Source: an uncultured Oscillospiraceae bacterium
GTDB taxonomy: Bacteria; Bacillota; Clostridia; Oscillospirales; Oscillospiraceae
NCBI GenBank assembly: GCA_947627285.1
Contig: CANQVL010000009.1
Coordinates: 9-64,008, forward strand
DNA: 64,000 nucleotides
Direction of reading: 5' to 3'
The notes beneath the pieces are model-generated. The model saw only the letters and a list, made by a program, of their open reading frames with translations. It was not told the origin of the DNA and did no database searches. This document shows positions 2,534 through 63,715 of the stretch, one piece after another (the first letter of the stretch is position 1; each line of letters starts with the position of its first letter). A program made the translations under genes and the position numbers.

Positions 2534-2878
2534 GTGAAAAAGCCAACGGTCTTTTTTATCCAAAAATCAAAGCAGTCAGCCGCCTACCGCTCCGGGGAAA
2601 AGCTGTTTGGCGAATACTACGGCGAGTACAGCGACTACACCCGCAAGGGCGGTGTGATCTGCTCCGGCATCCTGCTACCGCCCCAAGCCCCGCCGGAGTA
2701 CCAAGACCGCCGGGCCCTATGGAACGCCGTGGAGAAAGCCGAGCGCGGCGGGAACGCCCAGCTTGCATACAGTTTTGAGATTTCCTTGCAGAATGAGTTT
2801 TCTCTTGAGGAAAATATCGCTCTGGCAAGGCAATTTTTATCGGAGCGGTTTGTCTGCCGGTTGAAATTTCTGCGGTAA
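2534..2878 (+). pseudogene. MobA/MobL-family relaxase, N-terminal fragment only (about 100 aa of a protein normally several hundred aa long)
   Basis: SAAYRSGEKL...YSDYTRKGGV...LLPPQAPPEY.DRRALWNAVEKAERGGNAQLAYSFEISL matches the relaxase N-domain. The MAIYH-type start is degenerate and homology stops near 2855, just before cobB. Confidence 0.7.
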
Positions 2879-2918
2879 GGTGATAGAATCAGGGTATCAA
2901 GGCTTAGGAGGGGTCGGT

Positions 2919-3641
2919 ATGGGCGGGAAGATCGAGAGGCTTCAAGGGCTTATTGACGGGGCGGAGAGGATAGTGTTTTTTGGGGGCGCGGGGGTGTCCA
3001 CGGAGAGCGGGATACCTGATTTCCGAAGTGTGGACGGGCTCTACAACCAAAAGTACGACTACCCGCCGGAGGAGATACTGAGCCGCAGCTTTTTTGACCG
3101 GTATCCCGATGAGTTTTACCGCTTTTACCGGGACAAGCTGATAGTTCGTGGGGCAAAGCCCAACGCCGCCCACGAATATCTGGCGCGGCTTGAAAAGCGG
3201 GGAAAGCTCCGGGCGGTGGTGACGCAGAACATCGACGGGCTCCACCAGGCGGCGGGCAGTAAAAACGTCCTGGAGCTCCACGGGACGCTTTTAAAGAATT
3301 ACTGCGTCAAGTGCGGCAGGCGCTATGACGCGGATTTCGTCCAGAACGCCTCCGAGACGCCCCGGTGCACCGCCTGCGGGGGTATAGTGAGGCCCGACAT
3401 CGTGCTTTACGAGGAGGGGCTTGACCAGGACGTGCTTTCAAGGGCGGTGACGGAGATCTCCCGTGCGGATATGCTCATCATCGGCGGCACGTCTCTGGCG
3501 GTCTACCCGGCGGCGGGGCTTATCCACTACTTCAGGGGGCCGCATCTGGTGCTGATAAACAAGTCCCCCACGCCCATGGGCTCCCTGGCGGAGCTTGTTA
3601 TCGCCGGAAAAATCGGGGAGGTCTTCTCACAGCTGCGCTGA
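2919..3641 (+). CDS. cobB: NAD-dependent protein deacylase, Sir2 family
   Basis: GAGVSTESGIPDFRS, QNIDGLH, zinc ribbon CVKCG...CTACGG. AGGAGG RBS before ATG 2919. Confidence 0.9.
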   Translation: MGGKIERLQGLIDGAERIVFFGGAGVSTESGIPDFRSVDGLYNQKYDYPPEEILSRSFFDRYPDEFYRFYRDKLIVRGAKPNAAHEYLARLEKRGKLRAVVTQNIDGLHQAAGSKNVLELHGTLLKNYCVKCGRRYDADFVQNASETPRCTACGGIVRPDIVLYEEGLDQDVLSRAVTEISRADMLIIGGTSLAVYPAAGLIHYFRGPHLVLINKSPTPMGSLAELVIAGKIGEVFSQLR

Positions 3642-4225: not shown

Positions 4226-5506
4226 ATGCTCATTCATATCATTCGCCGGGGAGACACGCTCTACGCCATCGCCCGGCGCTACGGCACCTCGGTCCAGCGT
4301 ATCCGTTCGGACAACGGGCTTGGGGAGAATCAGACGCTTGTGGTGGGGCAGGCGCTTTTAATCACACTGCCGTCGCAGGTTTACACGGTGCGGCAGGGGG
4401 ATACCCTGTACTCCATCGGCAGGAGGTTCGGCGTCAGCGTTCCGGAGCTTATCCAGAATAACCCGGAGCTCGCCCAAAACGAGACGATACGCCCGGGACA
4501 ACAGCTGACGGTAAGCTTTCAGGGCTCGAAAATACGCTCGATAGCCACAAAGGGCTACGCCTATCCACACATTCAGCGCTCAACGCTCCTGGGCGCCCTG
4601 CCGTATCTTACGTACCTTGCCGTTTTCACCTACGGCTTTACGGAATCGGGCACGCTGATACCCGCTTCGGACACGGAGCTCATCGCCGCCGCTTACAGGT
4701 TCAACACGGCGCCGGTGCTTGTTTTTTCCAGTCTTGATGAGACGGGTGGCTTCTCCACCGCCAGGGCGTCCCGGCTCTTTTCCGACCCGCAGCTCCAGGA
4801 CACGGTGCTGACGAACCTTCTGGAGGTCATGCGGGAGAAGGGGTATGTGGGCGTCGACATGGACTTTGAATACATCGCCCCGGAGGACGCGGAGGGATAT
4901 CAGGCGTTCCTGCGAAGGGCTGTGGAGAGGCTGAGGCCCAACGGCTTCACCGTAAGCGCGGACCTGGCGCCGAAGATCACCGCCAACCAGCCGGGGCTCC
5001 TTTACGAGGCCCACGACTACCCCGCCATCGGCGCGATTGTGGACAGGGTGCTGCTGATGACCTACGAGTGGGGCTACACCTACGGTCCGCCAATGGCTGT
5101 GGCGCCAATAAACCAGGTGCGGAATGTGGTGAAGTACGCCGTCACGGAGATCCCGCCGGAGAAGATAATGATGGGCATACCCAATTACGGCTACGACTGG
5201 ACTCTGCCCTATGAACAAGGCGTGACGAGGGCGGAGAACATCGGCAACCAGGGCGCGGTGCTCAGGGCGGCAAGGTACGGGGCGGAGATACAGTTTGACG
5301 AGACCACCCAGTCGCCGTTTTACGAGTATTACGCGGGCGGACGCCGCCACACGGTGTGGTTCGAGGATGTGAGGAGCGTTGAGGCAAAGCTGGCGCTGGC
5401 TGACGAATACGGGCTCTACGGCGTGGGGTACTGGAATATAATGCGCCCCTTCAACCAAAACTGGGTGCTTTTGGCGGCGAGGTACAATATTGAGAAGATA
5501 GTGTAG
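4226..5506 (+). CDS. LysM-repeat glycoside hydrolase family 18 protein (YaaH/SleL-like spore peptidoglycan hydrolase)
   Basis: Two LysM repeats (RRGDTLYAIARRYG, RQGDTLYSIGRRFG) and the GH18 motif GVDMDFEY. Confidence 0.85.
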   Translation: MLIHIIRRGDTLYAIARRYGTSVQRIRSDNGLGENQTLVVGQALLITLPSQVYTVRQGDTLYSIGRRFGVSVPELIQNNPELAQNETIRPGQQLTVSFQGSKIRSIATKGYAYPHIQRSTLLGALPYLTYLAVFTYGFTESGTLIPASDTELIAAAYRFNTAPVLVFSSLDETGGFSTARASRLFSDPQLQDTVLTNLLEVMREKGYVGVDMDFEYIAPEDAEGYQAFLRRAVERLRPNGFTVSADLAPKITANQPGLLYEAHDYPAIGAIVDRVLLMTYEWGYTYGPPMAVAPINQVRNVVKYAVTEIPPEKIMMGIPNYGYDWTLPYEQGVTRAENIGNQGAVLRAARYGAEIQFDETTQSPFYEYYAGGRRHTVWFEDVRSVEAKLALADEYGLYGVGYWNIMRPFNQNWVLLAARYNIEKIV

Positions 5507-7097: not shown

Positions 7098-7129
7098 AAC
7101 GCGGCTTAAAAACGGAGTGCCAAAAGCTC

Positions 7130-7225
7130 AAAAGGATTCGGAAATGTCCGCGGACATTTCCGAATCCTTTTTCGCACGTATTCCCTTCAAGTATAGAAAA
7201 AGGCAAAGCCTTTTTCTATACTTGA
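7130..7225 (+). repeat. Hairpin-repeat family, copy A (modules HP3-linker-HP4)
   Basis: 42-nt perfect palindrome AAAAGGATTCGGAAATGTCCGCGGACATTTCCGAATCCTTTT (7130-7171), linker CGCACGTATTCCC, then hairpin TCAAGTATAGAAAAAGGC-AAA-GCCTTTTTCTATACTTGA (7187-7225). Lies between convergent genes. Confidence 0.85.
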
Positions 7226-10639: not shown

Positions 10640-13600
10640 GTGAAGAAACTGTTGGCAATGGTGTTGGCGTTTGTGATGGTACTGTCCCTTGTACCGATGA
10701 TTGATTTGACCGCGAAAGCGGCAGCAGACAAAGATCTGCATAAGGGAAGTGACGTAGGGGATGATATCACCATAGACATAACCGAGATTTCCCACGGACC
10801 GTATTATTCGGGGAAAACGGTGGAATACTCCGTTGTTTTCACGAATACCGGAGATGCCATAAAAGGAAGCGGCTCCCAAACACTGAAGATACATATATAT
10901 AACACTAACAGCAACCTTAATAACGTTTTTGATGACGTAACTCTGCCCGATAATAACCTTCAATACAGATTTGCCGGACATACGGAGAGCGAAGGCTTCG
11001 GAAACATTAAAAACGACAAATACAATCAGTTGGAGTTTGAGCTTAATGGTGATGTCCTTTTCCCGGCAAACGGTTCCATCACTTTGACATTACAGTATAA
11101 GGTCAGGGACAATGACAAGGATCTGCATAAGAACCTTGAAAACTTTATTATTATTTATTTGGGAGATACAGAAAAAGAAAATGCTGTCGGCAAATTTGTG
11201 ACGAGCAGCTTTGACCAGGTCGTCAGCGAGAAGGAGAAAGGCGAGCTTACAGTCACAAATACCGTAACTAAAGACGATGCACCCGATAACGATACGGAGT
11301 TTTCCTATACTTTGACGCTTGAGGATAAAAGCTTTAACGAAAAGGTCGATGATTTGCAGTTTACAAACGGTCAGGCAACGTTTAGATTAAAAAACGAAGG
11401 AAAACGCACGATCTCTCTCCCGGTAGGGACTGATTTTACCCTGACGGAGACTCCAAACGGAGAATTTGTGATTGAAAACACAACGACTGGCGGTACTCAT
11501 ATAGATGACAGAACAGTAACCGGAAAAATATCAAGCTCCCCGATAACGGTAGGATTTACCAATACGCTGACGAGCGCCCCAGTCGAACCGGGCGAGCCGG
11601 CGCATACGTATAAATATAAGGTCGTCTATCACGCAAACCTTCCGACGGGGGTTGAGTCGCAATATCCGGATATAAAGGATTATGAAGATAAAAATGATTC
11701 CGGATTTTTTGTGGTAAAGGAAATATGCGAAGGCGGAGAGACAAAGAACACTACCGATGATGACATTCCGCTGTTTACCGACAGCAATAGCAAACCGATT
11801 AAGTGGAGCGTAGAAGATGGAAGCGGTACGACATGGTATTTTGAGGGTTGGCATACAAGTGAATCCGTTGCCGAAGGTGATAGTATTGAATACTCTGTCT
11901 CAGATTTCTCGGGGAACAAGCGCGGCTTCGTTAAAGACGATACTTCACGAGAACTGACACTGGATACCAAAACTGTTTCACAGGACCTATACGCCATTTG
12001 GTCTAAAACGCCCGGCAGGATCGGGTATACAATGCAGGTGGAGGGCGGCAGATTCAAGGACAGCGGCAAAACGTCAGACGGTCAGCTGCTTGGAGATAAC
12101 GGAACAACAGGCTCCAACGCGAAAAAGTTTATTGTAAATGACGGAGGACATTCAAACGGAGCTACGGTTACCGCGACGCAGGAGATACCCACAAGCAGCG
12201 ATTGGAGCTTTGTAATTTGGATGAACAAAAAGGCAAATACGGATGGAGACAGCAACACAAAATACCTTGTAGGTCCCGGAAAAGAGTTCTCGTTTGGTAC
12301 GACAAGCACAAATTACAGCCTTGACGCCATATGGTCAAAAATAACTGGGACGAATGACGAAGAATACATCTATGACGGGAAATCGCACAACATTGATATT
12401 TCTAAAGTTTCAGTTGAATTCAACAATCCGTCAACGTCAAGCTCATATGATGATAACGCGAAAGCTGCCTATGACAACCTTTTTGCCAAGGATAATATTA
12501 TTACATATGACGTTTCGGTTTATGACGTTCAGAAGGATGAGGAAAGCGACACAATAATAGGGTACGAACCGGGGGACGCTGTGCCGGCAGAATTACAGTA
12601 CACGGAGCCCGGAACGTACATATATAAGATAGGGGCAAGGCTTAATTCATCATACGGGTCCGACTCTATTAATCAGACCCTCGGCTACGTTTATGCCACC
12701 CTCACGATTTTGGACACCAGCCTCACCGTCACCAAAAACGTTCCCAACGTCATCGACGACACGACGGGATTCGATTTCAAAATTGCCTTTGATGGCTGGG
12801 AACCGGCTGATCTGAAATTTAAGGACGGGACACCAGTGACCAAGGACTCCTCCTCCGGCGCTTTCAGCTTTACGCTCCAGGACGGCAAAAGCGTGACGAT
12901 TATAAGTATCCCAGTGGGCGTTTCGTACACGGTGACGGAGACAGATAAGACGAACTATATTGAGCTGACCGCTGAGCAAAAGGGCACAATTACCGGCGCT
13001 GACAAGGACCAACAGGTCACCTTTACCAATTATAAGACCGCCAGCTTGACTGTAAAAAAAGAGGTTAAAACTGACGGGGGGACGCTTCCGTCGAGCGAAA
13101 ATGAAAAAGTATTCAATTTCACGCTATCGCTTTCACTGCCAGCGGGAATGCCGGATCAGACTATTGAGGGGCAAACTGTAAAAAGCGGCGAGACGACCGA
13201 TATAAGCTTTGCGCTGAAGGCTGGCGAAACAAAAGAGTTTACCGGTATACCGTTCGGCTCCACATACAGCGTCAAAGAGAAGCTTGAAGGCACGGACGAG
13301 CACTTCTACACGCAGGCTTTTACCAGCGACCATGGTACTATCGGCGAAACAATCGACAGTGAAAGTGAGACAATAACCTGCACAAACACATACCATGAAA
13401 ACGCTTCGGATACAGGGCGCCTCAGGATAACCAAATATGCCGCCGGTATGGCCTCGCTGACCGAATTCAAGGTTAAGGTGACGTATGAGTATAATGGGGA
13501 CCCTGCACATATAGAGTTGTATAATTCATTCAAGACGGCAGAAGGGATCACCTCCGGTGATTCTCAGACCTACACGATCCCGAGAAACGGCAGCATTTTG

Positions 13601-15301
13601 ATCAAAAATATCCCATACGGCACCAAGTATACGATCGAGGAGGTCTTTGATGCAGGTTCCACTAAGCCGAGGAACATGCTGATCACCGTACCTGATGGCG
13701 AGGCGGGGGAGTATGAGATTTCCGGAACAGGCACTAGCGCCAAGGTAAGCGGCGCTATTCTGGAGAAGGACGAGGGCGCTGAAGGCTATGACTTTGACAG
13801 CGTGACGCTGACAAACCGGTACCTCGGCGACCTGACCATTAAAAAAGAGGTTGACGGGGATTATAAGCCTGAGACCTGGGAAGTTGAGCTCACACTTAAA
13901 TTCAGCGGCTTTGATAAAAGCGAGCTTGGCCTCCTTGAAAACGCCATGCGCATTACCGACGCCAATGGAGAACGCACCGCGGCGGAGCTTATGGAGGACT
14001 TTAGAGTTGACGACGCCGTAACCGTCACCCTCACCAATGAGAAACCGGAGGCTGTCGTATATGACGTACCCATTGAACGCACCAGCTACGTCATCTCCGA
14101 GGACTCCGAATTCGCGGGCGATACGGTTAAAATCCAGGTGGGCACCGGAGCGGAGAAGGAGGCGTCCCAGACAGACCCCACGGTTTTCACAAACGAAACG
14201 GCAAACGTGGTATTTAAAAATAGTTATACCGAGGAGCCGCCCGCGCCTCCCACCATCTATCCACCAATCGAAAATCCCGCCTCTACGCTGACCGTTACCA
14301 AGAGGGTCGACGGGGAGGGCGCCGATACAGAGCAGGAGTTTGATTTCACCGTGAAAAACAGCTCCGGCGTTGAGATTGCGTCGTTTAAGCTCAAAAACGG
14401 CGGGACACGCTCCGTATCCGTCACGCCGGGCGCTGAATACACGGTCACAGAGGAATATGTATCCGGCTACACGCCTAAGTGGAACGGCGAGGTAAACGGA
14501 AGCGTATACACCTTTACCGCAAAAAGCGGTGTGAACCGCGCGGAGTGTGTTAACACATATAAAAGGCCGTACACCGTCCCCGACGTTCTGGACGCGGACA
14601 GCCATTACGCTTACGCGGTGGGCGATACCTTCGGGCTCATTCTTCCAAACAGCACCGTCACGCGCAAGGAGGTCGTCGCTATCCTGTTCCGCCTGCTCAA
14701 GGAGGACGTGAGGATGGAAAACTGGAGCCAGGAGTCGCCCTTTGCCGACGTGCCCAATGACGCGTGGTATTCCAGCGCCGTGGGAACGCTCTACAACCTG
14801 GGGTATCTCCACGGCACAGGCGGCGGCAAATTTGAGCCCGACCTGCCCATGACGCGCGCCGAGATAACGGCTCTTGTGGCGAGCTTCTTTACCGGCTCGC
14901 AGACCGACGGGGATCTGCCCTTTGACGACGTGGACGGGGACGCCTGGTACGCCGACGACATAAGGACGGCCTTTGAGGTCGGACTTGTGGAGGGCGACGG
15001 CGACAGGACCTTTGAGCCCGAGGACACGCTCACCCGCGCCGAGGTGATGACCGCCTTCAACAAGCTGCTTGACCGCCATCCCAACCAGGACACCCTGCTG
15101 GAGGGCATGATCGAGTGGCCCGACAACCTGGATACCTCCGCGTGGTACTACGCCCAGATCCAGGAGGCGACCAATTCCCACACCTGCGGCGACAGGTGGA
15201 CAGGGGAGGACGGAGAAATTTACGAGCGCTGGGAGTCTCTGACCAAAAACCGCGACTGGCTCGGCATATCCTGGGAAAACGTCCCGAATTACGAGGAATA
15301 A
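10640..15301 (+). CDS. Large secreted cell-surface protein: signal peptide, at least 6 Cna-B/SpaA-like repeat domains, three C-terminal SLH domains
   Basis: GTG start with signal peptide KKLLAMVLAFVMVLSLVPMIDLTAKA. Recurrent LTVTK.V...F.F...G.S..I..IP.G..YTVTE modules. SLH repeats: FADVPNDAWYSSAV, FDDVDGDAWYADDI. Confidence 0.85.
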   Translation: MKKLLAMVLAFVMVLSLVPMIDLTAKAAADKDLHKGSDVGDDITIDITEISHGPYYSGKTVEYSVVFTNTGDAIKGSGSQTLKIHIYNTNSNLNNVFDDVTLPDNNLQYRFAGHTESEGFGNIKNDKYNQLEFELNGDVLFPANGSITLTLQYKVRDNDKDLHKNLENFIIIYLGDTEKENAVGKFVTSSFDQVVSEKEKGELTVTNTVTKDDAPDNDTEFSYTLTLEDKSFNEKVDDLQFTNGQATFRLKNEGKRTISLPVGTDFTLTETPNGEFVIENTTTGGTHIDDRTVTGKISSSPITVGFTNTLTSAPVEPGEPAHTYKYKVVYHANLPTGVESQYPDIKDYEDKNDSGFFVVKEICEGGETKNTTDDDIPLFTDSNSKPIKWSVEDGSGTTWYFEGWHTSESVAEGDSIEYSVSDFSGNKRGFVKDDTSRELTLDTKTVSQDLYAIWSKTPGRIGYTMQVEGGRFKDSGKTSDGQLLGDNGTTGSNAKKFIVNDGGHSNGATVTATQEIPTSSDWSFVIWMNKKANTDGDSNTKYLVGPGKEFSFGTTSTNYSLDAIWSKITGTNDEEYIYDGKSHNIDISKVSVEFNNPSTSSSYDDNAKAAYDNLFAKDNIITYDVSVYDVQKDEESDTIIGYEPGDAVPAELQYTEPGTYIYKIGARLNSSYGSDSINQTLGYVYATLTILDTSLTVTKNVPNVIDDTTGFDFKIAFDGWEPADLKFKDGTPVTKDSSSGAFSFTLQDGKSVTIISIPVGVSYTVTETDKTNYIELTAEQKGTITGADKDQQVTFTNYKTASLTVKKEVKTDGGTLPSSENEKVFNFTLSLSLPAGMPDQTIEGQTVKSGETTDISFALKAGETKEFTGIPFGSTYSVKEKLEGTDEHFYTQAFTSDHGTIGETIDSESETITCTNTYHENASDTGRLRITKYAAGMASLTEFKVKVTYEYNGDPAHIELYNSFKTAEGITSGDSQTYTIPRNGSILIKNIPYGTKYTIEEVFDAGSTKPRNMLITVPDGEAGEYEISGTGTSAKVSGAILEKDEGAEGYDFDSVTLTNRYLGDLTIKKEVDGDYKPETWEVELTLKFSGFDKSELGLLENAMRITDANGERTAAELMEDFRVDDAVTVTLTNEKPEAVVYDVPIERTSYVISEDSEFAGDTVKIQVGTGAEKEASQTDPTVFTNETANVVFKNSYTEEPPAPPTIYPPIENPASTLTVTKRVDGEGADTEQEFDFTVKNSSGVEIASFKLKNGGTRSVSVTPGAEYTVTEEYVSGYTPKWNGEVNGSVYTFTAKSGVNRAECVNTYKRPYTVPDVLDADSHYAYAVGDTFGLILPNSTVTRKEVVAILFRLLKEDVRMENWSQESPFADVPNDAWYSSAVGTLYNLGYLHGTGGGKFEPDLPMTRAEITALVASFFTGSQTDGDLPFDDVDGDAWYADDIRTAFEVGLVEGDGDRTFEPEDTLTRAEVMTAFNKLLDRHPNQDTLLEGMIEWPDNLDTSAWYYAQIQEATNSHTCGDRWTGEDGEIYERWESLTKNRDWLGISWENVPNYEE

Positions 15302-15308
15302 AGCACTT

Positions 15309-15341
15309 TTGTCAAAAAAGGGCGCAGCCCTTTTTTGACAA
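15309..15341. terminator. Bidirectional terminator hairpin, HP4-like module of the repeat family (copy H)
   Basis: TTGTCAAAAAAGGGC-GCA-GCCCTTTTTTGACAA, about 90 percent identical to HP4 at 61436-61469. Confidence 0.7.
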
Positions 15342-15345
15342 TCTT

Positions 15346-15383
15346 AAGCGGAGGACCATTTGATTGGTCCTCCGCTTTTTAAA
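15346..15383 (+). terminator. Rho-independent terminator
   Basis: AAGCGGAGGACCA-TTTGAT-TGGTCCTCCGCTT followed by TTT. Confidence 0.7.
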
Positions 15384-17640: not shown

Positions 17641-17714
17641 GGCGAAAAATGCCTTACGGCATTTTTCTGCCAATAGGTGATTTTTCCGATGTACATGCCG
17701 CCGGAAAAATATTT
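17641..17714 (-). repeat. Hairpin-repeat family, copy B (HP1 plus an HP4-like hairpin, opposite orientation)
   Basis: The reverse complement reads AAATATTTTTCCGGCGGCATGTACATCGGAAAAATCACC-TATTG-GCAGAAAAATGCCGTAAGGCATTTTTCGCC. Confidence 0.75.
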
Positions 17715-17763
17715 GATTGAGATTTTTGGCGGCGGTTATACCTTTCGAAAGGAGCCATGGCCT

Positions 17764-22792: not shown

Positions 22793-22827
22793 AACCCCGG
22801 CATGAAGACCCGGTTCGCAAAAATCTC

Positions 22828-23016
22828 TTAATTAAATATTTTTCCGGCGGCATGTACGTCGGAAAAATCACCTCTTGTTTTGCAAGCGTGCGCCCCTTCG
22901 GGGCGTGCGCACAGCAAAACAGCAGAAAAAAATTTCGGAAATGTCCGCAGACATTTCCGGAATTTTTTTCGCACGCTCCCCATTGCCCAAAAAGGGCGGA
23001 GCCCTTTTTGGGCAGC
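22828..23016 (+). repeat. Hairpin-repeat family, copy C (full: HP1-HP2-HP3-HP4)
   Basis: HP1 22839-22867, HP2 22877-22920, HP3 22926-22969, linker CGCACGCTCCCC, HP4 22984-23015. Confidence 0.85.
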
Positions 23017-23021
23017 AAAAA

Positions 23022-23094
23022 AGCGGCCTACGAGGCTCGAACTCGCTACCTCCACCTTGGCAAGGTGGCGCTCTACCAGATGAGCTAAGGCCGC
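23022..23094 (-). tRNA. tRNA-Gly (anticodon GCC), CCA not encoded
   Basis: Reverse complement GCGGCCTTAGCTCATCTGGTAGAGCGCCACCTTGCCAAGGTGGAGGTAGCGAGTTCGAGCCTCGTAGGCCGCT folds as a cloverleaf: 7-bp acceptor stem, anticodon loop TTGCCAA, TTCGAGC T-loop. G1-C2-G3 and U73 fit Gly identity. Confidence 0.85.
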
Positions 23095-23179
23095 ACGGAA
23101 CGGTATTGATTATAACCTCCCCGTGCGGCTTTGTCAAGAAGTTTTTTTGCTTTATAAAAATTTTATAAAAATTTTCTTC

Positions 23180-24697
23180 TCAGCTGTTCTTCTCCGCCCG
23201 GCGGCTTTTCATGCCGCGGACCACGTTTTCGTCCACCGCCTTTTCCAGGGCGTCGGTGACAATCTGGAGCGTGCGGATACGGGCGTATTTCTTGTCCACG
23301 GACTCGATGATGTGCCAGGGGGCGTACTCCGTGCTTGTTTTTTGGAGCATATCCTCCACGGCCTGCTCGTACTGGGGCCACTTGTCCCGGTTGCGCCAGT
23401 CCTCGTCGGTGATCTTCCACTGTTTCTCCGGGGTGTTCTGCCGCGCCTCGAAGCGCTCCAGCTGGGTGTCGGGGTCGATATGTATCCAGAACTTCAAAAC
23501 CACCGTGCCCCAGTCCGTAAGCTCCTTCTCGAATTCGTTGATCTCCCCGTAAGCCCTCTGCCAGTCGTTCTCGGAGCAGAAGCCCTCTATTCTCTCCACC
23601 ATCACCCTGCCGTACCAGGTGCGGTCAAATATGGCTATGTGCCCGCTGCGGGGGAGCTTTGTCCAGAACCGCCAGAGATAGTGCCGCGCCTTCTCCGCCG
23701 GCGTGGGGCTGGCGATGGGGATGACGTCAAAGCCCCTGGGGTCCAGAGGATAGGTGAGCCTTCGGATATTTCCGCCCTTTCCCGCGGCGTCCCAGCCCTC
23801 GTAGCATATGACCACGGGTATCTTCTTCCTGTATATGCGGTTGTGGAGCTTTGCCAGCTTCTCCTGGAGCTCCCGAAGCTTCTTGTCGTACTTCTTGGGG
23901 TCTATTGTCGCCGTGAGGTCCGCGTCCTTCTGCGACGGGCCGCCCAGGAGCGGGAATTTAACACCGGAGGGCCTGCCCTCATATTTCCCCGAGGCGATGG
24001 CGGCCTCCACATTCCCCGTGATGGCGGACAGCGCGTCATAGAGCGCCTTCTGCCTGCCCTCGCCGTCAAGCACGGTCCAGGGGGAGATCTTCGTGGTTGC
24101 CTCCATAAAATCGTCATAGGCCTTCAAAAACTGCCCGTACTCCTGCTGCTGCCACAGGTCATCGCCGGACACCCTCCACTGGGTGTCACGGTTCTCCCGC
24201 AGAGCGGTTATGCGCTCCAGCTGGCAGGCGCGGGAGATGTGTATGAAGAGCTTTATCACCACGTACCCGTTGTCCCGAAGCTGGCGCTCGAAGGTGTTGA
24301 CGGACGCCACGCGGCGGTCGTACTCCTGAGCCGGGATCTCACGCCGCAGGTACTTGCCCACCACGTCCTCCATCCAGCCGGTGTCCATGAAAAGAAATTT
24401 GCCGGACTCGGGGACGACCTCGAAAAACTTCTTTAAGAACGGGTAACGCTCGTCGTACTCGTGGGTCCTGCCGAAGCTCTTCACCGAGAAAAATCTGGGG
24501 TCCATCTCGCAGATGAGCTCACGGATTAGGTTCCCCTTTCCCGCGCAGTCCCAGCCCTCCACCAGGACGATTACGGGCAGCTTCGCCTCCCGTATCTCCT
24601 GCTGCTGAGCCGAGAGCACCGCCTTGAGGCGGCGTATCTCCGCACGCCTCACGTCCTTGTCCAGGCAGTCGTCGTTTCTCTTGAAATCCAGGATCAT
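23180..24697 (-). CDS. ppk2: Two-domain polyphosphate kinase 2 family protein (polyphosphate:AMP phosphotransferase-like)
   Basis: Duplicated PPK2 modules with P-loops VEGWDCAGKG and YEGWDAAGKGG. Confidence 0.9.
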   Translation of the reverse strand: MILDFKRNDDCLDKDVRRAEIRRLKAVLSAQQQEIREAKLPVIVLVEGWDCAGKGNLIRELICEMDPRFFSVKSFGRTHEYDERYPFLKKFFEVVPESGKFLFMDTGWMEDVVGKYLRREIPAQEYDRRVASVNTFERQLRDNGYVVIKLFIHISRACQLERITALRENRDTQWRVSGDDLWQQQEYGQFLKAYDDFMEATTKISPWTVLDGEGRQKALYDALSAITGNVEAAIASGKYEGRPSGVKFPLLGGPSQKDADLTATIDPKKYDKKLRELQEKLAKLHNRIYRKKIPVVICYEGWDAAGKGGNIRRLTYPLDPRGFDVIPIASPTPAEKARHYLWRFWTKLPRSGHIAIFDRTWYGRVMVERIEGFCSENDWQRAYGEINEFEKELTDWGTVVLKFWIHIDPDTQLERFEARQNTPEKQWKITDEDWRNRDKWPQYEQAVEDMLQKTSTEYAPWHIIESVDKKYARIRTLQIVTDALEKAVDENVVRGMKSRRAEKNS

Positions 24698-27112: not shown

Positions 27113-28257
27113 CACATCTTCTCCTCGCCGTGATTTACCTCTCCTTCATAAGCCTCGGCCTTCCCGACGCGCTTCTCGGCGCGGGGTGGCCCGTGATGTA
27201 CCGCGATTTGAACGCCGGTGTCGGCTGGGCGGGGGTGGTCTCGACCATCATCTCCGTCTCAACTGTGGTATCCAGCCTCAACTCCGACCGCATGACCCGC
27301 CGCTTCGGGGCGGGGACGGTCACGGCGGTGAGCGTGGCGTTGACGGCGGTTTCGCTTTTCGGCTTCTCCGCCGCGCCGGGCTTCCGGGCGCTGTGCGTCC
27401 TCGCCGTGCCGTACGGTCTTGGCGCGGGGGCGGTGGACGCGGCGATAAACAACTACGCCGCCATACATTACGAGAGCCGGCACATGAGCTGGCTCCACTG
27501 TATGTGGGGCATCGGCGCGGCGGCGGGGCCGTACATAATGGGCTGGGCCCTGACAAACCGCACCTGGCGCTTCGGCTACGGGGCTGTCGGCGCCCTGCAG
27601 GTCATGCTCACCGCCGCGCTTTTCCTCAGCCTGCCGCTGTGGAAAAGGGGAGAGGCGGAGGAAAAAATGAGCGGCGGCGGCATGACCACGGCGGAGGTCC
27701 TGCGGGTGCCGGGCGTCATTCCCTTTGTGCTCACCTTCTTCTGCTACTGCGCCCTGGAGAGCACCGCCGGGCTATGGGCGGCGAGCTACCTGGTGCTGAG
27801 CCGGGGGATAGGGGAGGAGACGGCGGCAGGCTTCGCCAGCCTCTTTTACATCGGCATAACCCTCGGAAGGTTTTTGAACGGCTTCCTCACCCTGAGGCTG
27901 TCGGACAGGCAGCTCATCTTCGCCGGCTCCGCTGTGGCGGCGTTGGGCGCGGCGGTGCTTTTACTGCCCCTGGGAGCTCCCGTGGCGGCGGCGGGGCTTG
28001 TACTTGTGGGGCTGGGGTGCGCGCCGGTCTACCCCTGCATGATCCACTCCACCCCCGCCTATTTCGGCGCGGATAAGTCCCAGTCGGTGATAGGCGTCCA
28101 GATGGCGGCGGCGTACCTTGGCACCGCCCTGGTCCCGCCGATTTTCGGGGCGCTGGCGTCCCGCGTTACACCCGCGCTTTACCCGCCGTTTCTGCTGGCT
28201 TTGACCGGGCTTATGGGAATGTTTCACGTAAAACTTTTACGTAAAATGCGTAAATAA
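27109..28257 (+). CDS. MFS transporter
   Basis: About 12 predicted hydrophobic helices. 4-nt overlap with patB. Confidence 0.8.
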   Translation: MTHLLLAVIYLSFISLGLPDALLGAGWPVMYRDLNAGVGWAGVVSTIISVSTVVSSLNSDRMTRRFGAGTVTAVSVALTAVSLFGFSAAPGFRALCVLAVPYGLGAGAVDAAINNYAAIHYESRHMSWLHCMWGIGAAAGPYIMGWALTNRTWRFGYGAVGALQVMLTAALFLSLPLWKRGEAEEKMSGGGMTTAEVLRVPGVIPFVLTFFCYCALESTAGLWAASYLVLSRGIGEETAAGFASLFYIGITLGRFLNGFLTLRLSDRQLIFAGSAVAALGAAVLLLPLGAPVAAAGLVLVGLGCAPVYPCMIHSTPAYFGADKSQSVIGVQMAAAYLGTALVPPIFGALASRVTPALYPPFLLALTGLMGMFHVKLLRKMRK

Positions 28258-28301
28258 AAAAACTGTGAAGGTACTCAAAATGTCACCTTCACAGTTTTTT
28301 T
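28256..28301. terminator. Bidirectional terminator between convergent genes
   Basis: A-run, CTGTGAAGGT...ACCTTCACAG, T-run. Confidence 0.7.
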
Positions 28302-28310
28302 GCATGTATC

Positions 28311-30104
28311 TCAGGACCCCTGGCCGCGGATCATCTCATAGACCAGCCTCACAAGCTCCCCTCTGGTGCAGGGGGAGGCGGGGGAGAACCTGCCGTTTTC
28401 GTCGGGGGTTATCATTCCCTCGCCTGCCGCCCAGAGTATGGCCTTGTAGTAGGCGTTTTCGGATACGTCCGAAAACGGGTTTACGCTTTCCGCGGGCTCC
28501 GGCTTGCCCATGTAGTTCCACAAAAGCGTCACCACCGAGCGCCTGTCACATATCCCCGTGGGGTTGAAGCGACCGTCCCCAACGCCGCTGATAATGCCCT
28601 TTTCGGCGCACCACGCCACGGCGCCGGCGTACCAGACGTCAGGGTCCACGTCGGAAAACGGCTCTTTCGCGGTCTCGATCTCCGGGGTGCCGGCGGCGTT
28701 CCAGAGGATACGCGCCATCATCCCGCGATCGACAGACCCCGCTGTGTCAAAGGTCCCGTCCGCGTTGCCGGAGACGACCCCGTTTTCCGACGCCCACATA
28801 ACGGCGTCAAAATATTCACTGTCCGTGCCCACGTCCGGGAAGACGAGCCCCGCCGGAACGGAGGCGACGCCATCATCGGAAAGCTCATAAAACACCGGCG
28901 CGGAGCCGTTTGTCACGTACCAGACAGCCCTGCTGTCCAGAAGCAGGGGGGCGCAGTCGGAAAGGGGGGCACAGGCTGTCATGACCTCTCCGGGCTTTCC
29001 GGCGGCGTCAAACCTCACGTATTGAAGGGTGTCGGTGAGGGAGCCGTCCTCGCCGCAGGTGTTCCAGATAACAAATCCGCCGTCCTCGCCGCAGGCAAGC
29101 TGCGGGGTGGACGCGCCGGGGGCGGATACCGCCTGGGTGGTGACCGCAAGGGTCCGCTTGTCGATTGCGGCGACGTACACCGACCTGTCGGCGTTCACGG
29201 TGCTGTCGCCCCTGCCGTCATAATTGTACGCCGTTATATACGAGCTCTCCGTCTCGCCGAAGCCGCCGAAGCTGGCGCCGGTGACCTGGTCGCTCTCGCC
29301 CAAAGGGTAGCTGAGGACCGGGACCGTGGTCACGGAGCCGGAGGTTATGTCCTCGCTCCCCGCCGGAGCGGAAAAAATGCTTATCGCCGCGGCCCTTATG
29401 GGGTGCTTGTCGCCCTGGTCCAGGGCGGCTAATCGCCCCGCGCTGTCGGTGAGAATGAACTGGTTGAAGGAGCGGGAGACGTATCCGCACCCCACGTCAG
29501 CCACAAGGTGGGCGGAATCGGTGACAGCCATGTCGCTCTCACGGACGGCGACGGTCATATTTGCCGGGGCGTTGACGCCCGTGCCGCCGGAGTACATCTG
29601 GTGGCAGGTGCGGATGTACAGCATACCGCCGGACTCCGCCATTCTCAGGGACCCGTAGGCAAAGGGGCGGGAGGTGTTGGCGCCCTTCAACGACGCCTGA
29701 CCCAGCCTTTCCCAGCTCTTGGAGTATTTGACCACCCGTATGACCTCAACGCTGTCGCTCTCCACGGGATTTGACTGCCCGAACACGAAGAAGTTGTATT
29801 CCTCCCCGGCGAAGAACCCGCCCCAGAAGGGGAGCTCAAGGGGTATCTCAAGACGCTTTATGAGCATATATTCGCTGTTATATTCCTCAACGACTGCCCG
29901 GGGCTCCGTGCCGGGGCGCTCCACCCTGGTGAGGCGCCCGTCGGGACCCGAGAAGAGATAGGAGCTCACGGGCGAGGCGTCCCAGGTGAGGTAATTCTGA
30001 GCGTTTATGTTGGTCGTCTCCCTCGCGCCGGAGGCGCCGGCGGGGACGCAGACGATGAAGGCAAGCGCGGCAGCGGCGGCAAAGGTCAGGATCCGTTTTC
30101 CCAT
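28311..30104 (-). CDS. Secreted protein of unknown function with three C-terminal SLH domains
   Basis: Signal peptide MGKRILTFAAAAALAFIVCVPAGA. SLH repeats FPDVGTDSEYFDAV, FSDVDPDVWYAGAV, FSDVSENAYYKAIL. Confidence 0.8.
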   Translation of the reverse strand: MGKRILTFAAAAALAFIVCVPAGASGARETTNINAQNYLTWDASPVSSYLFSGPDGRLTRVERPGTEPRAVVEEYNSEYMLIKRLEIPLELPFWGGFFAGEEYNFFVFGQSNPVESDSVEVIRVVKYSKSWERLGQASLKGANTSRPFAYGSLRMAESGGMLYIRTCHQMYSGGTGVNAPANMTVAVRESDMAVTDSAHLVADVGCGYVSRSFNQFILTDSAGRLAALDQGDKHPIRAAAISIFSAPAGSEDITSGSVTTVPVLSYPLGESDQVTGASFGGFGETESSYITAYNYDGRGDSTVNADRSVYVAAIDKRTLAVTTQAVSAPGASTPQLACGEDGGFVIWNTCGEDGSLTDTLQYVRFDAAGKPGEVMTACAPLSDCAPLLLDSRAVWYVTNGSAPVFYELSDDGVASVPAGLVFPDVGTDSEYFDAVMWASENGVVSGNADGTFDTAGSVDRGMMARILWNAAGTPEIETAKEPFSDVDPDVWYAGAVAWCAEKGIISGVGDGRFNPTGICDRRSVVTLLWNYMGKPEPAESVNPFSDVSENAYYKAILWAAGEGMITPDENGRFSPASPCTRGELVRLVYEMIRGQGS

Positions 30105-39564: not shown

Positions 39565-39574
39565 TCTCAAAACC

Positions 39575-39640
39575 AAAAGGATTCGGAAATGTCCGCGGAC
39601 ATTTCCGAATCCTTTTTCGCGCGTTTCTCTTTTTCGAAAA
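39575..39640 (+). repeat. Hairpin-repeat family, copy D (HP3-linker plus a mini hairpin)
   Basis: Same 42-nt palindrome as copy A, linker TCGCGCGTTTCTC, then TTTTTCGAAAA. Confidence 0.85.
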
Positions 39641-40894
39641 TCAGTACAAAGGGAACCTTGCGCACAGGTCGGTGATTATCCCTCTTGTCTCCTCCTGAGT
39701 GCCCTCGTAGTCGTGGACGGTGGCGGCGATCCTGTCGGCAATGATCACCATCTCCGGCTCCTTGAAGCCGCGTGTGGTGACGGCGGGAGTGCCGATCCTT
39801 ATCCCGCTGGTGACAAAGGGCTTTTCCGGGTCGTTGGGTATGGCGTTTTTGTTTACCGTGATGTAAACGGAATCGAGCCGCTTTTCCAGCACCTTTCCGG
39901 TGACGCCCGTGCCGCGGAGGTCCGCCAGCATAAGGTGGTTGTCGGTGCCGCCGGAGACCAGGTTGACGCCCCGCTTCATAAGCTCCTCCGCCAGCACCTT
40001 GGCGTTTTTCACTATCTGCGCCTGATATGCCTTGAACTCCGGCCTCAGCGCCTCGCCGAAGCAAACCGCCTTCGCCGCGATGACGTGCATAAGCGGTCCG
40101 CCCTGGGTGCCGGGGAATATGGCTTTGTTAAACTGCTTGCCAAATTCGGGGTCCGCGGTGAGAATGAGCCCGCCGCGGGGTCCGCGCAGGGTCTTGTGGG
40201 TGGTGGTGGTCACCACATGTGCCCAGGGTATGGGCGACTCGTGCTCGCCCGCCGCCACAAGTCCCGCGATGTGGGCCATGTCCACCATCAGGTAAGCGCC
40301 CACGGAGTCCGCGATCTCGCGGAAGCGCTTGAAGTCGATGGCGCGGGGATACGCCGACGCGCCGGCGACGATGAGCTTCGGCTTGTTCTTCCGCGCCAGC
40401 TCCATAAGCGCGTCATAGTCGATGCGACCGGTCTCCGGGGAGACGCCGTAGGGGACAAAGTTAAAATATTTACCCGAGAGGTTCACGGGGGAGCCGTGGG
40501 TCAGGTGCCCGCCCTCGGCAAGATTCATCCCCAGGACCGTGTCGCCGGGGTTCAAAAGGGCAAAGTACACGGCAGTGTTTGCCTGGGCGCCGGAGTGGGG
40601 CTGGACGTTGGCGTAGCCCGCGCCGAAGATGGCCTTCGCCCGCTCGATGGCGAGCGTCTCCACCTCGTCCACGTACTCACAGCCGCCGTAATAGCGCTTT
40701 CCTGGGTAGCCCTCGGCGTATTTGTTGGTGAGTACGCTGCCCATCGCCGCCATGACGGCGGGGGAGACGTAGTTTTCCGAGGCTATGAGCTCGATGTTGC
40801 GCTTCTGCCGTCCCAGCTCACGGCCCATAGCCGCCGCCAGATCCGGATCTTGATTGGCTATGAAGCCGATGGAATCCTGAAGGTCTGAATACAT
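39641..40894 (-). CDS. glyA: Serine hydroxymethyltransferase
   Basis: [19 protein letters not shown]-lysine motif. Confidence 0.95.
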
Positions 40895-41760: not shown

Positions 41761-41910
41761 GGGAGCTTCCTCCTGACGTGATTTTATTTCGCTACAATAA
41801 TATCACATACCCGGAGAAATTGGTAGGGGATTAATAAACAAATTTTTAAAAATGTGTTGTAATTTTGCTGTACCAAAAGCAAAAGGAACAGCCGATTCAG
41901 TGCAATTCCT

Positions 41911-42088
41911 TTAATTATATATTTTTCCGGCGGCATGTACGTCGGAAAAATCACCTTTTGTCGCGCAAGTGTATGGTCTTTGACCATGCGCGCAGCGCGA
42001 CGGCAGGAAAATTTTTTTGAATTTCGCAAAATTCAAAAAAATTTTCTGAACGTTTCCATCTTTCGGAAAAGGGTTTACCCTTTTCCGA
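41911..42088 (+). repeat. Hairpin-repeat family, copy E (full: HP1-HP2-HP3-HP4)
   Basis: HP1 41922-41950, HP2 41960-42001, HP3 42007-42046 (all-A/T stem, CGCA loop), linker TGAACGTTTCCATC, HP4 42062-42088. Confidence 0.85.
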
Positions 42089-42096
42089 CGGTAAGC

Positions 42097-42125
42097 AAAA
42101 GGAGACGCCTTGAGGCGTCTCCAAT
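42097..42125 (-). terminator. rpmA terminator
   Basis: GGAGACGCC-TCAA-GGCGTCTCC followed by TTTT on the minus strand. Confidence 0.75.
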
Positions 42126-42140
42126 GGTGGAAATTTCGTG

Positions 42141-42404
42141 TTACTGCGCGGCTTCCTCGTAAACGGAGACCTGCTTGCGCTCGCGGTTGATGTGCTCATA
42201 GCGGACGGTGCCGGAGACCAGCGCGAACAGGGTGTCGTCGCTGCCCTTGCCCACGTTGTTGCCCGGGTGGATCTTTGTCCCGCGCTGGCGGACAAGGATG
42301 TTGCCGGCGAGGACGTACTGCCCGTCGGAGCGCTTCACGCCAAGGCGTTTGGACTCGGAATCGCGACCGTTCTTGGTGGAGCCCATTCCTTTTTTATGTG
42401 CCAT
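42141..42404 (-). CDS. rpmA: 50S ribosomal protein L27 (no N-terminal propeptide)
   Basis: [22 protein letters not shown]. Confidence 0.95.
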
Positions 42405-42908: not shown

Positions 42909-43658
42909 TCATTTATATACCCTGACCATTACCCTCAGCCGCCCCTTTTTCGTCTCGCGGGCGATACCCTCGTACAAAAACCTCCCGTAGTGCCTCACGG
43001 ATACCACGGTCCCCGGCTCCAGTGAGGCGGAGGGGGAGGAGGCGAGCCTTCCCGAGAGGAAAACCTGCTCCTTCGCGATGAGCTCCTGCGCCTGAGCGCG
43101 GGACAGCCTGTACACCGCCGCCACAGCCGCGTCAAGCCTCTCCGACGCCACCACCAGCTCCGACAGGGGAGGGGGCGCGGAGAGCTTCTCCGGCGGCTCG
43201 GAGCGGCTCACGGATACCGTCGTGCGCCTCACGGACGTCAGGCTCTCGCAAATAAATCCCGCGATGGACTCAAGGCAGAAGAGATACCCCACATTGTCGG
43301 AAATCTCAATGTCCCCCAGCACCTCCCGGCGTATGCCCAGCGCCATCAGCGACCCCAAAAAATCCCTGTGCGTCAGGGCGTCGGCAAATTTCTGGCTGAC
43401 CGGCTCCAGCTTGAGGCACACCACCGGCGGCGCCTCCACATATCCGCAAAGCTCCTCCGAGCCAAAGCACGCCACCCTCCTCTCGGAGGACTCAAGCCCC
43501 CCGAAAAGCGTAAAGGGGCACGTGACCCTGAGCCTCAGCAGCACGTCCTGCTCCGCCGGGGTCAAAAACTCCGAGAACACCCACTGCCCGCGCCCCTCGG
43601 CGCGCCGGGCAAGCTCGCTGAGCCTGTTTTTCAAAAGAGCCTCGTTTTCCATGCTCAT
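42909..43658 (-). CDS. YlmH-like RNA-binding S4-domain protein
   Basis: N-terminal FLTPAEQ motif and a C-terminal S4-like segment (RLDAAVAAVYRLSRAQAQELI). Confidence 0.7.
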   Translation of the reverse strand: MSMENEALLKNRLSELARRAEGRGQWVFSEFLTPAEQDVLLRLRVTCPFTLFGGLESSERRVACFGSEELCGYVEAPPVVCLKLEPVSQKFADALTHRDFLGSLMALGIRREVLGDIEISDNVGYLFCLESIAGFICESLTSVRRTTVSVSRSEPPEKLSAPPPLSELVVASERLDAAVAAVYRLSRAQAQELIAKEQVFLSGRLASSPSASLEPGTVVSVRHYGRFLYEGIARETKKGRLRVMVRVYK

Positions 43659-61355: not shown

Positions 61356-61379
61356 ATTCCTGCTTGTCAAGACGACGCA

Positions 61380-61469
61380 AAAGCCCTTGAGAAAGGTCCG
61401 CGGACCTTTCTCAAGGGCTTTCCGCACGTTTCCCCCCGTCAAAAAAGGGCGAAGCCATTTTTTTGACGG
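61380..61469 (+). repeat. Hairpin-repeat family, copy F (HP3-linker-HP4)
   Basis: AAAGCCCTTGAGAAAGGTCCGCGGACCTTTCTCAAGGGCTTT, linker CCGCACGTTTCCCC, CCGTCAAAAAAGGGC-GAA-GCCATTTTTTTGACGG. Confidence 0.85.
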
Positions 61470-61495
61470 GGAACGAAACCGCTAACTTGATGACC

Positions 61496-62805: not shown

Positions 62806-62826
62806 CTATATACGACAAATTTTATT

Positions 62827-63020
62827 TAATTTTTATAAAATATTTTTTCCAAGGACATGCGCCTTGGAAAAAACACCTTTTGTCGCGCAAGTGTGTCGCC
62901 TTCGGCGACGCGCGCAGCGCGACAGCAGGAAGACCCCCGAGAAAAGCCCGCAGGCTTTTCTCGGGGGTCTTCCGCACGTTCCCCTTGGCATTTAGAGCCC
63001 GCAAAGCGGGCTCTAAAGCC
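62827..63020 (+). repeat. Hairpin-repeat family, copy G (full: HP1-HP2-HP3-HP4)
   Basis: HP1 62843-62873, HP2 62882-62923, HP3 62928-62973 (CGCA loop), linker GCACGTTCCCC, HP4 62987-63020. Confidence 0.85.
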
Positions 63021-63022
63021 AG

Positions 63023-63715
63023 TTATAGTTGCTTTTGTGCGTTTATCTTTATGCCGGGGCCCATGGTGCTGGCGGTGACGCAGCTGCGGATATACTGGCC
63101 CTTGGCGGCGGCGGGCTTGGCGCGAAGGAGGGCGGTCATGAGAGCGTTGTAGTTCTCGGTGAGCTTCTCGGCACCGAAGGAGACCTTGCCGATGGGGCAG
63201 TGGATTATGTTGGTGCGGTCCAGGCGGTACTCGATCTTACCGGCCTTGACCTCGGTGATGGCCTGGGTGAGGTTGGGGGTGACGGTGCCGGCCTTGGGGG
63301 AGGGCATCAGGCCCTTGGGGCCCAGGGTCTTACCGAGGCGGCCCACAACGCCCATCATGTCGGGGGTGGCGATGACCACGTCGAAATCGAACCAGTTCTC
63401 CTTCTGGATCTTCTCCACCATATCCATGGCGCCAACGTAATCGGCGCCGGCTGCCAGGGCCTCCTCCTTGCGCTCGTCCTTGCAGAACACCAGGACGCGG
63501 CGGGTCTTACCTGTTCCGTGGGGGAGGACGACGGCGCCGCGGACCTGCTGGTCGGCGTGGCGGGAGTCGACGCCAAGCTTCACGTGGAGCTCCACGGTCT
63601 CATCGAATTTGGCCTTGGCGGTCTTGGTGATGAGGTCAAAGGCGTCGGCGGGCTCGTACTGGACGGAGCGGTCCACAAGCTTTGCGCTGTCTACGTATTT
63701 TTTACCCTTAAACAT
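63023..63715 (-). CDS. rplA: 50S ribosomal protein L1
   Basis: Typical L1 sequence ([20 protein letters not shown]). Confidence 0.95.

Follow-up and report, generated by a model that had tools for sequence, protein, structure and literature searches.

A family of structured intergenic repeats, probably miniature transposable elements inserted at terminators, in rabbit-gut Oscillospiraceae

Repeat loci in the window

We analysed a window of 64,000 nt from an uncultured Oscillospiraceae bacterium (contig CANQVL010000009.1 of assembly GCA_947627285.1, positions 9-64,008 of the forward strand), in which an intergenic repeat built of four hairpins (HP1 to HP4) occurs at eight loci. We consider it likely that these loci belong to a family of miniature non-coding transposable elements (~196-207 bp), of the MITE type (miniature inverted-repeat transposable element), in one rabbit-gut Oscillospiraceae clade. 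Eight loci had been listed in a sequence-only reading of the window, and the same eight were recovered by nhmmer profiles together with a covariance model. Three of them are full copies, four are deletion derivatives and one is a solo HP4:

22812..23016, + strand: full copy 1, between a 398-aa open reading frame (ORF; stop at 22792) and a tRNA-Gly gene (23022-23094, - strand)
22812-22837, 22838-22868, 22869-22875 and 22876-22921: 5' modules of copy 1, i.e. lead-in, HP1, AUCACCU and HP2
22922-22972, ~22973-22982 and 22983-23015: 3' modules of copy 1, i.e. HP3, linker CGCACGCUCCCC and HP4
41888..42092, + strand: full copy 2, a 205-nt insertion missing in two strains
62812..63022, + strand: full copy 3, with an alternative 3' hairpin, HP4b, at 62985-63022 (TTGGCATT...AAGCCAG)
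7114..7225, + strand: deletion derivative that keeps a remnant of the lead-in together with HP3, linker and HP4, flanked by MatE and peptidase C39 genes in convergent orientation
61360..61475, + strand: deletion derivative with CTGCTTGTCAAGAC, which resembles a terminal inverted repeat (TIR), then HP3, linker and HP4
39565..39641, + strand: deletion derivative with lead-in remnant, HP3 and linker, lacking HP4, between convergent BlaR1-type and SHMT genes
17641..17726, - strand: deletion derivative with lead-in, HP1, CACCUAUUGGCAG and a short A-run/T-run hairpin, downstream of gyrB
15309..15341, no strand: solo HP4-type palindrome, TTGTCAAAAAAGGGC-GCA-GCCCTTTTTTGACAA, directly adjoining a hairpin at 15346-15377

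The three full copies had been reported at 22828-23016, 41911-42088 and 62827-63020, all on the + strand and with one module order, which we found in each of them. The reported starts had to be moved, since the element begins ~15-25 nt further 5' with a lead-in that extends to 22812, 41888 and ~62812. The full copies have a mean identity of 76%, and the differences within HP2 and HP3 are mainly paired changes. The reported HP3 stem length of 18-21 bp held in all but copy 1, whose ~21-bp stem has a perfect core of 10 bp and contains one G·U pair. Copy 3 directly adjoins the stop codon of rplA (63023-63715, - strand). Every locus was placed between genes by our own gene calls, in line with the earlier statement that all copies are intergenic.

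The partial copies were read directly, and all were present at the positions reported. They retain a remnant of the lead-in (e.g., 7114-7133 and 61360-61379) fused straight to HP3, or to the hairpin after HP1, with the junctions lying in A-runs. Retention of this remnant argues that the shorter copies are internal deletion derivatives and not random fragments. In the derivative at 61360..61475 the linker also pairs with GGGGAACG located 3' of HP4.

The nhmmer profiles were built from 38 copies of the family, separately for the 5' half and the 3' half. The 5'-half profile matched the window at 22819, 41904 and 62833 (+ strand) and at 17670-17726 (- strand), while matches of the 3'-half profile were at 7131, 22920, 39576, 42001, 61380 and 62923, with HP4 alone at 15308-15342. 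E-values lay between 1e-10 and 1e-29, except that the solo HP4 had 2e-4. The covariance model, made for HP3 plus the linker and run with filters off, detected exactly six HP3 modules in the window with scores of 44-77 bits. The window contains 18 perfect palindromes whose arms reach at least 10 bp, and 13 of these are part of the repeat loci.

One extra match of the covariance model, at 28250-28313, was weak (25 bits) and looks like an ordinary bidirectional terminator. This match, along with the generic bidirectional-terminator shape of HP3 and HP4, would fit a view in which the loci are ordinary intrinsic terminators accompanied by local duplications, alike by convergence and not mobile. We hold that view to be very improbable; it is contradicted by the ~200-nt collinear similarity that includes unpaired linkers and recurs in ~50 dispersed copies with nhmmer E-values down to 1e-29, as well as the presence/absence polymorphism with a target site duplication (TSD) described below.

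Consensus anatomy and pairing

In an alignment of 38 copies (A2), the element is 196-207 nt long. The consensus starts with the lead-in (C)AGaCTGTCAAAAACyCmAAATyAAATA, followed by HP1 (a U5 ... A5 stem with the loop GCAUGUA) and UCACCU(C/U)UU, a junction left unpaired. HP2 consists of an outer and an inner stem separated by an internal loop, and after it comes CAGCAG. HP3 exists in five core classes, with an invariant CGCA loop and a hypervariable outer stem, and is connected by the linker CGCACGUUCCCC to HP4. HP4b replaces or follows HP4 in seven copies, copy 3 of the window among them. The claim that the element has no coding capacity is borne out, as element lengths fall into all three mod-3 classes and the longest internal ORF has a median length of 44 aa, none being conserved.

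RNAalifold predicted 55 pairs for the 38 copies, 37 of them with compensatory changes. With the structure fixed, 98.9% of cells were paired compared to 82% in shuffled alignments, and the number of doubly changed pairs was 37 compared to 23 ± 1.8 in the shuffles (0/500), though the copies are related, so these tests overstate the significance of the pairing. The covariation score was 0.497, compared to at most 0.126 when partners were slid by 1-3 columns. These slid controls and the five different HP3 cores lead us to regard the pairing as truly maintained. Covariation is strong in each of the four hairpins.

With respect to the strand, copy 1 folds better on the + strand (-101.3 kcal/mol, z = -11.4) than on the - strand (-88.1 kcal/mol, z = -7.9), a difference of 13 kcal/mol. 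The counts of G·T versus A·C cells were 35/0 for HP1, 136/1 for HP2, 12/7 for HP3 and 5/4 for HP4; the G·T cells of HP1 and HP2 sit at ~8 pair positions, several of them common to all copies, so that they represent few independent events. On the + strand, HP2 is capped by C(UNCG)G in 27/38 copies with a variable N (UUCG, UACG, UCCG), while it is on the - strand that the CGCA loop of HP3 reads UGCG, a UNCG loop. The G·T cells without A·C cells, the UNCG caps and the better + strand fold indicate that HP1-HP2 is constrained on one strand, as RNA or as single-stranded DNA (ssDNA). HP1 and HP2 fold only on the + strand, and selection on them probably acts at the RNA level.

HP3 and HP4, on the other hand, are perfect, strand-symmetric palindromes composed of an A-run, a GC core and a T-run. 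Both have the GC-containing stem followed by a U-tract that defines an intrinsic terminator, and a terminator consensus scan of copy 1 flagged HP3 on the - strand and HP4 on the + strand. The two hairpins are thus predicted, and probably act, as bidirectional intrinsic terminators. Scans for sigma-70 promoters gave nothing consistent across copies; copy 3 has a promoter-like ACGACA-18-TAAAAT just 5' of HP1.

Several of these features would also be expected if the copies were mainly small RNA (sRNA) genes or RNA modules of 3' untranslated regions (3'-UTRs), with mobility secondary. Each copy would then give a ~170-nt transcript of HP1, HP2, HP3 and the terminator, whose single-stranded AUCACCU(C/U)UU and ACGUUCCCC would serve as C/U-rich seeds resembling an anti-Shine-Dalgarno sequence. 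The strong covariation, the G·U but no A·C pairs of HP1/HP2, the UNCG tetraloops on the + strand, the conserved linkers left unpaired in the predicted fold, the terminator-like hairpin at the 3' end and the promoter-like sequence of copy 3 agree with it, and so does the upstream gene, which is co-oriented in 28/47 copies. Still, we judge this reading unlikely: no promoter recurs consistently among copies, a co-oriented upstream gene is missing in ~40% of them, the loop of HP3 is of UNCG type on the opposite strand, and the frequent deletion derivatives without HP1/HP2 show that this domain is dispensable for persistence. The direct evidence of insertion with a TSD also stands against it.

A more speculative combination, to which we give still less credence, is one of ~50 paralogous ~170-nt regulatory RNA genes whose AUCACCU(C/U)UU (like the anti-Shine-Dalgarno end of 16S rRNA) and ACGUUCCCC would pair with ribosome-binding sites, and which would be spread by a terminator-recognising, hairpin-duplicating transposase. 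If true, the element would be a self-propagating cassette of an sRNA plus a bidirectional terminator.

Element ends and target duplications

The sequence-only reading had found neither TIRs nor target duplications. Both statements turned out to be wrong for the family: four copies bounded by direct repeats have imperfect TIRs of 14-16 bp, and copy 2 is flanked by an 11-bp duplication evident from filled versus empty sites. The window alone could not reveal TIRs and TSDs, since the ends of all three of its full copies are degenerate.

The TIR consensus (C)AGyyTGTyGAmAAA is short and imperfect. The outer right arm of HP4 forms the right TIR, and the motif recurs a third time as the left arm of HP4. 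Direct repeats of a whole hairpin flank the four copies, at loci L019 (32 nt), L039 (27 nt), L052 (at least 27 nt) and L022 (~30 nt, with one of the two repeat copies decayed). Just inside these hairpin repeats, the element starts with CAGTTTGTCAAAAAAC or CAGwCTGTTGACAAAC and ends with TTTTTCGACAAGCTG or ...GACAGGCT. The ends match as inverted repeats at 11-13 of 14-16 positions (11 of 14-15 in L039 and L019).

For copy 2, the filled and empty sites were compared by looking up the exact ribosomal L27 protein encoded beside it in several ENA metagenome assemblies. Copy 2 is present in L058, L060, L061, L062 and L065, with an L27-DegV spacer of 380 nt, and absent in L059 and L063, where the spacer is 164 nt. 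An alignment (A3) of the filled window, L058, L060, L061 and L065 with the empty L059 and L063 delimited a 205-nt insertion at 41888-42092 plus an 11-bp duplication of AAGCAAAAGGA. The features at this site are as follows:

41877..41887, no strand: left TSD copy, AAGCAAAAGGA, single in the empty site
42093..42103, no strand: right TSD copy, reading TCCTTTTGCTT on the - strand, which corresponds to the U-tract of the rpmA terminator and the final 3 bp of its stem
42101..42122, - strand: intrinsic terminator hairpin of rpmA (L27), GGAGACGCC-TTGA-GGCGTCTCC, the target beside copy 2

The gene next to it was confirmed by a Pfam Ribosomal_L27 match for 42141-42404. Since the empty alleles share flanking single-nucleotide polymorphisms with the filled L058, the event, whether insertion or precise loss, was recent. 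Strain look-ups at five sites identified one polymorphic site (rpmA) and two with filled alleles only; for the other two, no identical protein was on record. In L052, a locus of Lapin-004__bin43, the copy and the duplicated hairpin lie between a gene and mutL, while the orthologous spacer of Lapin-001__bin59 (bin59) is 31 nt long and has neither element nor hairpin.

The duplications bear on a further possibility, that the family is REP/BIME-like or an IS200/IS605-derived PATE, moved as ssDNA by an HUH enzyme (RAYT or TnpA). REPs are single palindromes of 20-40 nt with a conserved head tetranucleotide and no target duplication. PATE, likewise without a TSD, are inserted 3' of a fixed 4-5-nt target, and HUH transposition makes no target duplication. 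Because target duplications are present here, the 11-bp one as well as those of whole hairpins, REP/RAYT and IS200/IS605 origins are disfavoured. The family does resemble REP/BIME in being an abundant set of extragenic palindromes at gene ends, and some REPs act as terminators or mRNA stabilisers; its hairpin-rich, 3'-end-biased extragenic location and the folding of HP1/HP2 on one strand only, as ssDNA recognition hairpins would fold, could also be cited in favour. The unit here, however, has 200 nt and four hairpins with TSDs. Unlike PATE, it has an 11-bp TSD and flanks that share no common short target among copies; no fixed 4-5-nt target unites the insertion sites. A GTAG-type REP head is lacking, copies within a contig differ in orientation, and neither a RAYT nor a TnpA gene appeared in the sequence examined, no genome-wide search having been made. 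Overall, an origin of this kind appears quite improbable.

Genomic context and distribution

Gene context was determined by a simple codon-usage gene caller for 43 full copies with both neighbours called. Convergent genes flank 21/43 copies, compared to a baseline of 15% (p = 1.4e-7), whereas none of the 43 is between divergent genes, where the baseline is 16% (p = 6e-4). The remaining 22/43 are between tandem genes, with an orientation bias of 15:7 that is not significant (p = 0.13). The family is thus enriched where genes end, at their 3' side. The HP4 end is usually 0-50 nt from the stop codon of the opposing gene, the neighbours in the window being rplA, rpmA and tRNA-Gly. Another hairpin (at least 8 bp) is located within ~15 nt of the 3' end in 18/50 copies and on the 5' side in nine.

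The expectation that the element is abundant genome-wide proved right. A scan of one genome per species with the pattern AAAAWCACCTYTTGTNNNGCAAG yielded 57 loci, ~40 of them from a single conspecific metagenome-assembled genome (MAG), the uncultured Oscillospiraceae bacterium Lapin-001__bin59. Lapin-004__bin43 had three, and Lapin-032__bin32, Lapin-032__bin131 and an Acetatifactor bin of the sample that also gave bin59 had one each, while the remaining matches were chance ones, in coding regions of unrelated taxa. Besides bin59, three further rabbit MAGs of Oscillospiraceae/Clostridia contain a few copies of the family. After a profile search of the retrieved loci, the number of full copies in all sequence examined was 50, with at least 45 in bin59.

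The window and contig 11 of bin59 share ~96% identity over 7.7 kb, which makes them the same or sister species. This contig bears the ortholog of copy 1 (L043), in a stretch that shares 96% identity with the window. Although copies 2 and 3 fit the scan pattern exactly, the scan did not retrieve them from bin59, a MAG that may be incomplete; this suggests further insertion polymorphism.

Outside this group, viral contigs had no exact match to the 5'-module or HP2-insert patterns, JGI metagenomes had none to the L005 continuation or the 5'-module pattern, and a blastn search of plasmids and phages with copy 1 found no match. The family looks confined to a narrow rabbit-gut clade. The sequence-only reading could not assign the repeat to a described element, and indeed it is not in Rfam and no named equivalent was found. 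Rfam 15 was searched with the window, with three copies and with six loci, using both the gathering and the E-value mode, and only tRNAs were above threshold; the best sub-threshold match was the sodF sRNA (34.4 bits versus a threshold of 46), a generic hairpin match.

Relation to known elements and proposed origin

The family is small and non-coding, with many dispersed copies, TIRs, a TSD and insertion polymorphism, the properties that characterise MITEs. We class it as a new family of a known kind, a MITE or a small interspersed structured repeat. The likeness to BOX, REP and MITE-type elements noted earlier thus holds as far as modular intergenic structured repeats are concerned; the accompanying absence of TIRs and TSDs does not.

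By comparison with published systems, the closest described analogues are the BOX and SPRITE repeats and, for targeting, IS1272. BOX elements of Streptococcus pneumoniae are modular boxA-boxB-boxC repeats enriched downstream of genes (PMC3049150). Like BOX, the present family is from a Firmicute, non-coding and multi-copy, with modules absent or swapped, a tight predicted RNA fold and TIR-like ends. It has no known sequence relationship to BOX and, compared by description, differs in having four distinct hairpins, two of them terminator-like palindromes, in place of A/B/C boxes, and in inserting at the feet of terminators with target duplications of 11 to 32 bp. The pneumococcal SPRITE is a terminator-like repeat near 3' ends of convergent genes for which no cognate insertion sequence (IS) has been identified (PMC3049150). 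Our family shares the terminator-like character, the strong enrichment near convergent 3' ends and the lack of an identified cognate IS, while SPRITE is a single long stem with a U-rich tract, to which the present element adds the strand-specific HP1-HP2, a second palindrome and TSDs.

IS1272 and TnSha1 insert at the base of terminators verified by RNA-seq, without a sequence consensus, and the target hairpin is deleted or replaced with no duplication; in the published model, joining at the 5' feet ('pathway b') would duplicate the whole stem-loop (PMC4923244, PMC5678879). The family behaves similarly in its choice of stem-loop or terminator targets without a sequence consensus, in insertion at the hairpin base and in having ends able to form a stem-loop. 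In contrast to IS1272, the target (U-tract or whole hairpin) is duplicated and not deleted. The four hairpin-flanked copies look like the modelled outcome of pathway b, a likeness of targeting behaviour. Members of the IS1202 group (IS1202, ISSeq2) have TSDs of 16-28 bp (27-28 bp in the streptococcal members), and the IS1202 family has 24-26-bp TIRs with a 5'-TGT start and an ACA-3' end; the targets of the long-TSD group are not known (PMC10132070). The duplications of 27-32 bp in four copies are similarly long, the only verified case here being 11 bp. In our family, unlike in the IS1202 family, the corresponding TGTC...GACA lies subterminally, 4-5 nt in from the ends that the direct repeats define.

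For a MITE of this kind we propose that a transposase supplied in trans would bind TTGTCAAAAA-type ends and integrate the element at the foot of extruded terminator hairpins by means of staggered cuts whose spacing varies. Such structure-directed targeting would be comparable to that of IS1272/TnSha1 (IS1182 family). With HP3 and HP4 as predicted terminators, insertion would keep or reinforce the termination of both neighbouring genes, which could be why many copies are tolerated. HP1-HP2 might be a 3'-UTR or leader structure, an sRNA, or a remnant of a leader of the parent's transposase.

Several observations weigh against a MITE. The TIRs are clear in only a subset of copies, and the ends of copy 2, the sole one that can be compared with an empty site, are weak (AC.G.CG). 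A long flanking duplication is not detectable in most copies, and TSD lengths of 11 and 27-32 bp make an unusual range for a single transposase. The duplicated hairpin of L052 is itself an HP4-type module of the family and not a unique host terminator, and the empty allele of copy 2 could result from precise deletion between the 11-bp repeats. As for an autonomous partner or transposase, a Pfam search of ten window proteins found none, an all-against-all blastp of 336 predicted proteins (~0.5 Mb of loci) revealed no multi-copy protein, and the kb-spaced TIR pairs matched by a regular expression were all chance hits within genes. Terminator activity and transcription of the copies are predictions, and the sigma-70 promoter scans were inconsistent across copies.

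The family adds a well-defined MITE to poorly studied uncultured gut Oscillospiraceae. It would provide natural cases of insertion at a terminator foot with duplication of the U-tract or the whole hairpin, previously only modelled for the IS1272 type. Target duplications that span terminators are among its less common traits, as is the union of a strand-specific and a strand-symmetric half in one element. These split constraints make it a convenient system for the tolerance or co-option of mobile repeats as terminators between convergent genes. In practice, the copies can be expected to interrupt assemblies of short reads and to imitate predicted sRNAs or terminators in such MAGs.

Module variants and additional observations

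Seven copies (L026, L029, L030, L044, L050, L051, L057) have an insert of ~115 nt at the HP2 apex. A ribozyme was considered for this insert and rejected, as there was no Rfam match and the best score, for twister, was 15.5 bits versus a threshold of 67. The ~115-nt structured module, GGGGUCCCC-hairpin-GGGGAGAGGAGGAGCGAAG...GCGCCUGA-hairpin-GAGGUUAAGCGnCUUCnGCGACGACGA, is shared by the HP2-apex inserts and the core of a second, unrelated MITE of bin59, and both of its hairpins covary between the versions. It occurs elsewhere as follows:

L043:2724-2804, L042:5282-5362, L012:2394-2474, L032:2978-3071 and L021:4538-4651: ~115-nt module
L057:3656-3792 and 4319-4430: ~115-nt module

The second MITE is ~255 nt long and lies in L043 at ~2690-2945 (reverse strand), between the tRNA-Gly promoter region and PPK2. 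Its TIRs, TACTAATATCTAtTTaAAA ... TTTTAATTAGATATTAGTA, are almost perfect, and TCA forms a 3-bp duplication; the window lacks this element (empty site 23164-23180). At this site the window has a tandem duplication of ATAAAAATTTT (23159-23180).

At L005 (5581-5749) and L055 (417-579), bin59 contigs end identically 66 nt past HP2, with a hairpin GAGTTACCA-AGGGACCC-TGGTAACTC. We rejected the idea that this sequence is the interior of a full-length IS, the contigs stopping at the same base after 66 nt. The shared end is probably a further variant of the 3' module, one that disrupts the assembly.

Between the copy 1 orthologs, the HP4 loop (22998-23000 in the window) is reverse-complemented, being GGA in the window and TCC in bin59. 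Across copies, 3-nt HP4 loops are found in both orientations: AAA/TTT, GGA/TCC and GCA/TGC. These loop sequences suggest inversion or template switching, i.e. palindrome dynamics at the DNA level.

Elsewhere in the window, ARAGORN called a tRNA-Lys(ttt) of 87 nt at 43512-43598 (- strand), which the Rfam tRNA model did not report and which lies within a called coding region (42909-43658); the call is likely a false positive. The G+C content is low at 1-2000 (0.39), compared to ~0.6 in the rest of the window, and again within 10640-15301, where it is 0.45-0.49 over much of a 1553-aa protein with SLH, DUF7601 and DUF5979 domains. These two stretches may be horizontally acquired or surface-variable. 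In L058 (ERZ27059539), a Rep_trans/Rol_Rep_N replication-protein gene with small ORFs (639-1652) is located directly upstream of rplU, where other strains have ylmH and its neighbours; this region is probably a remnant of an integrated plasmid or of an integrative and conjugative element.

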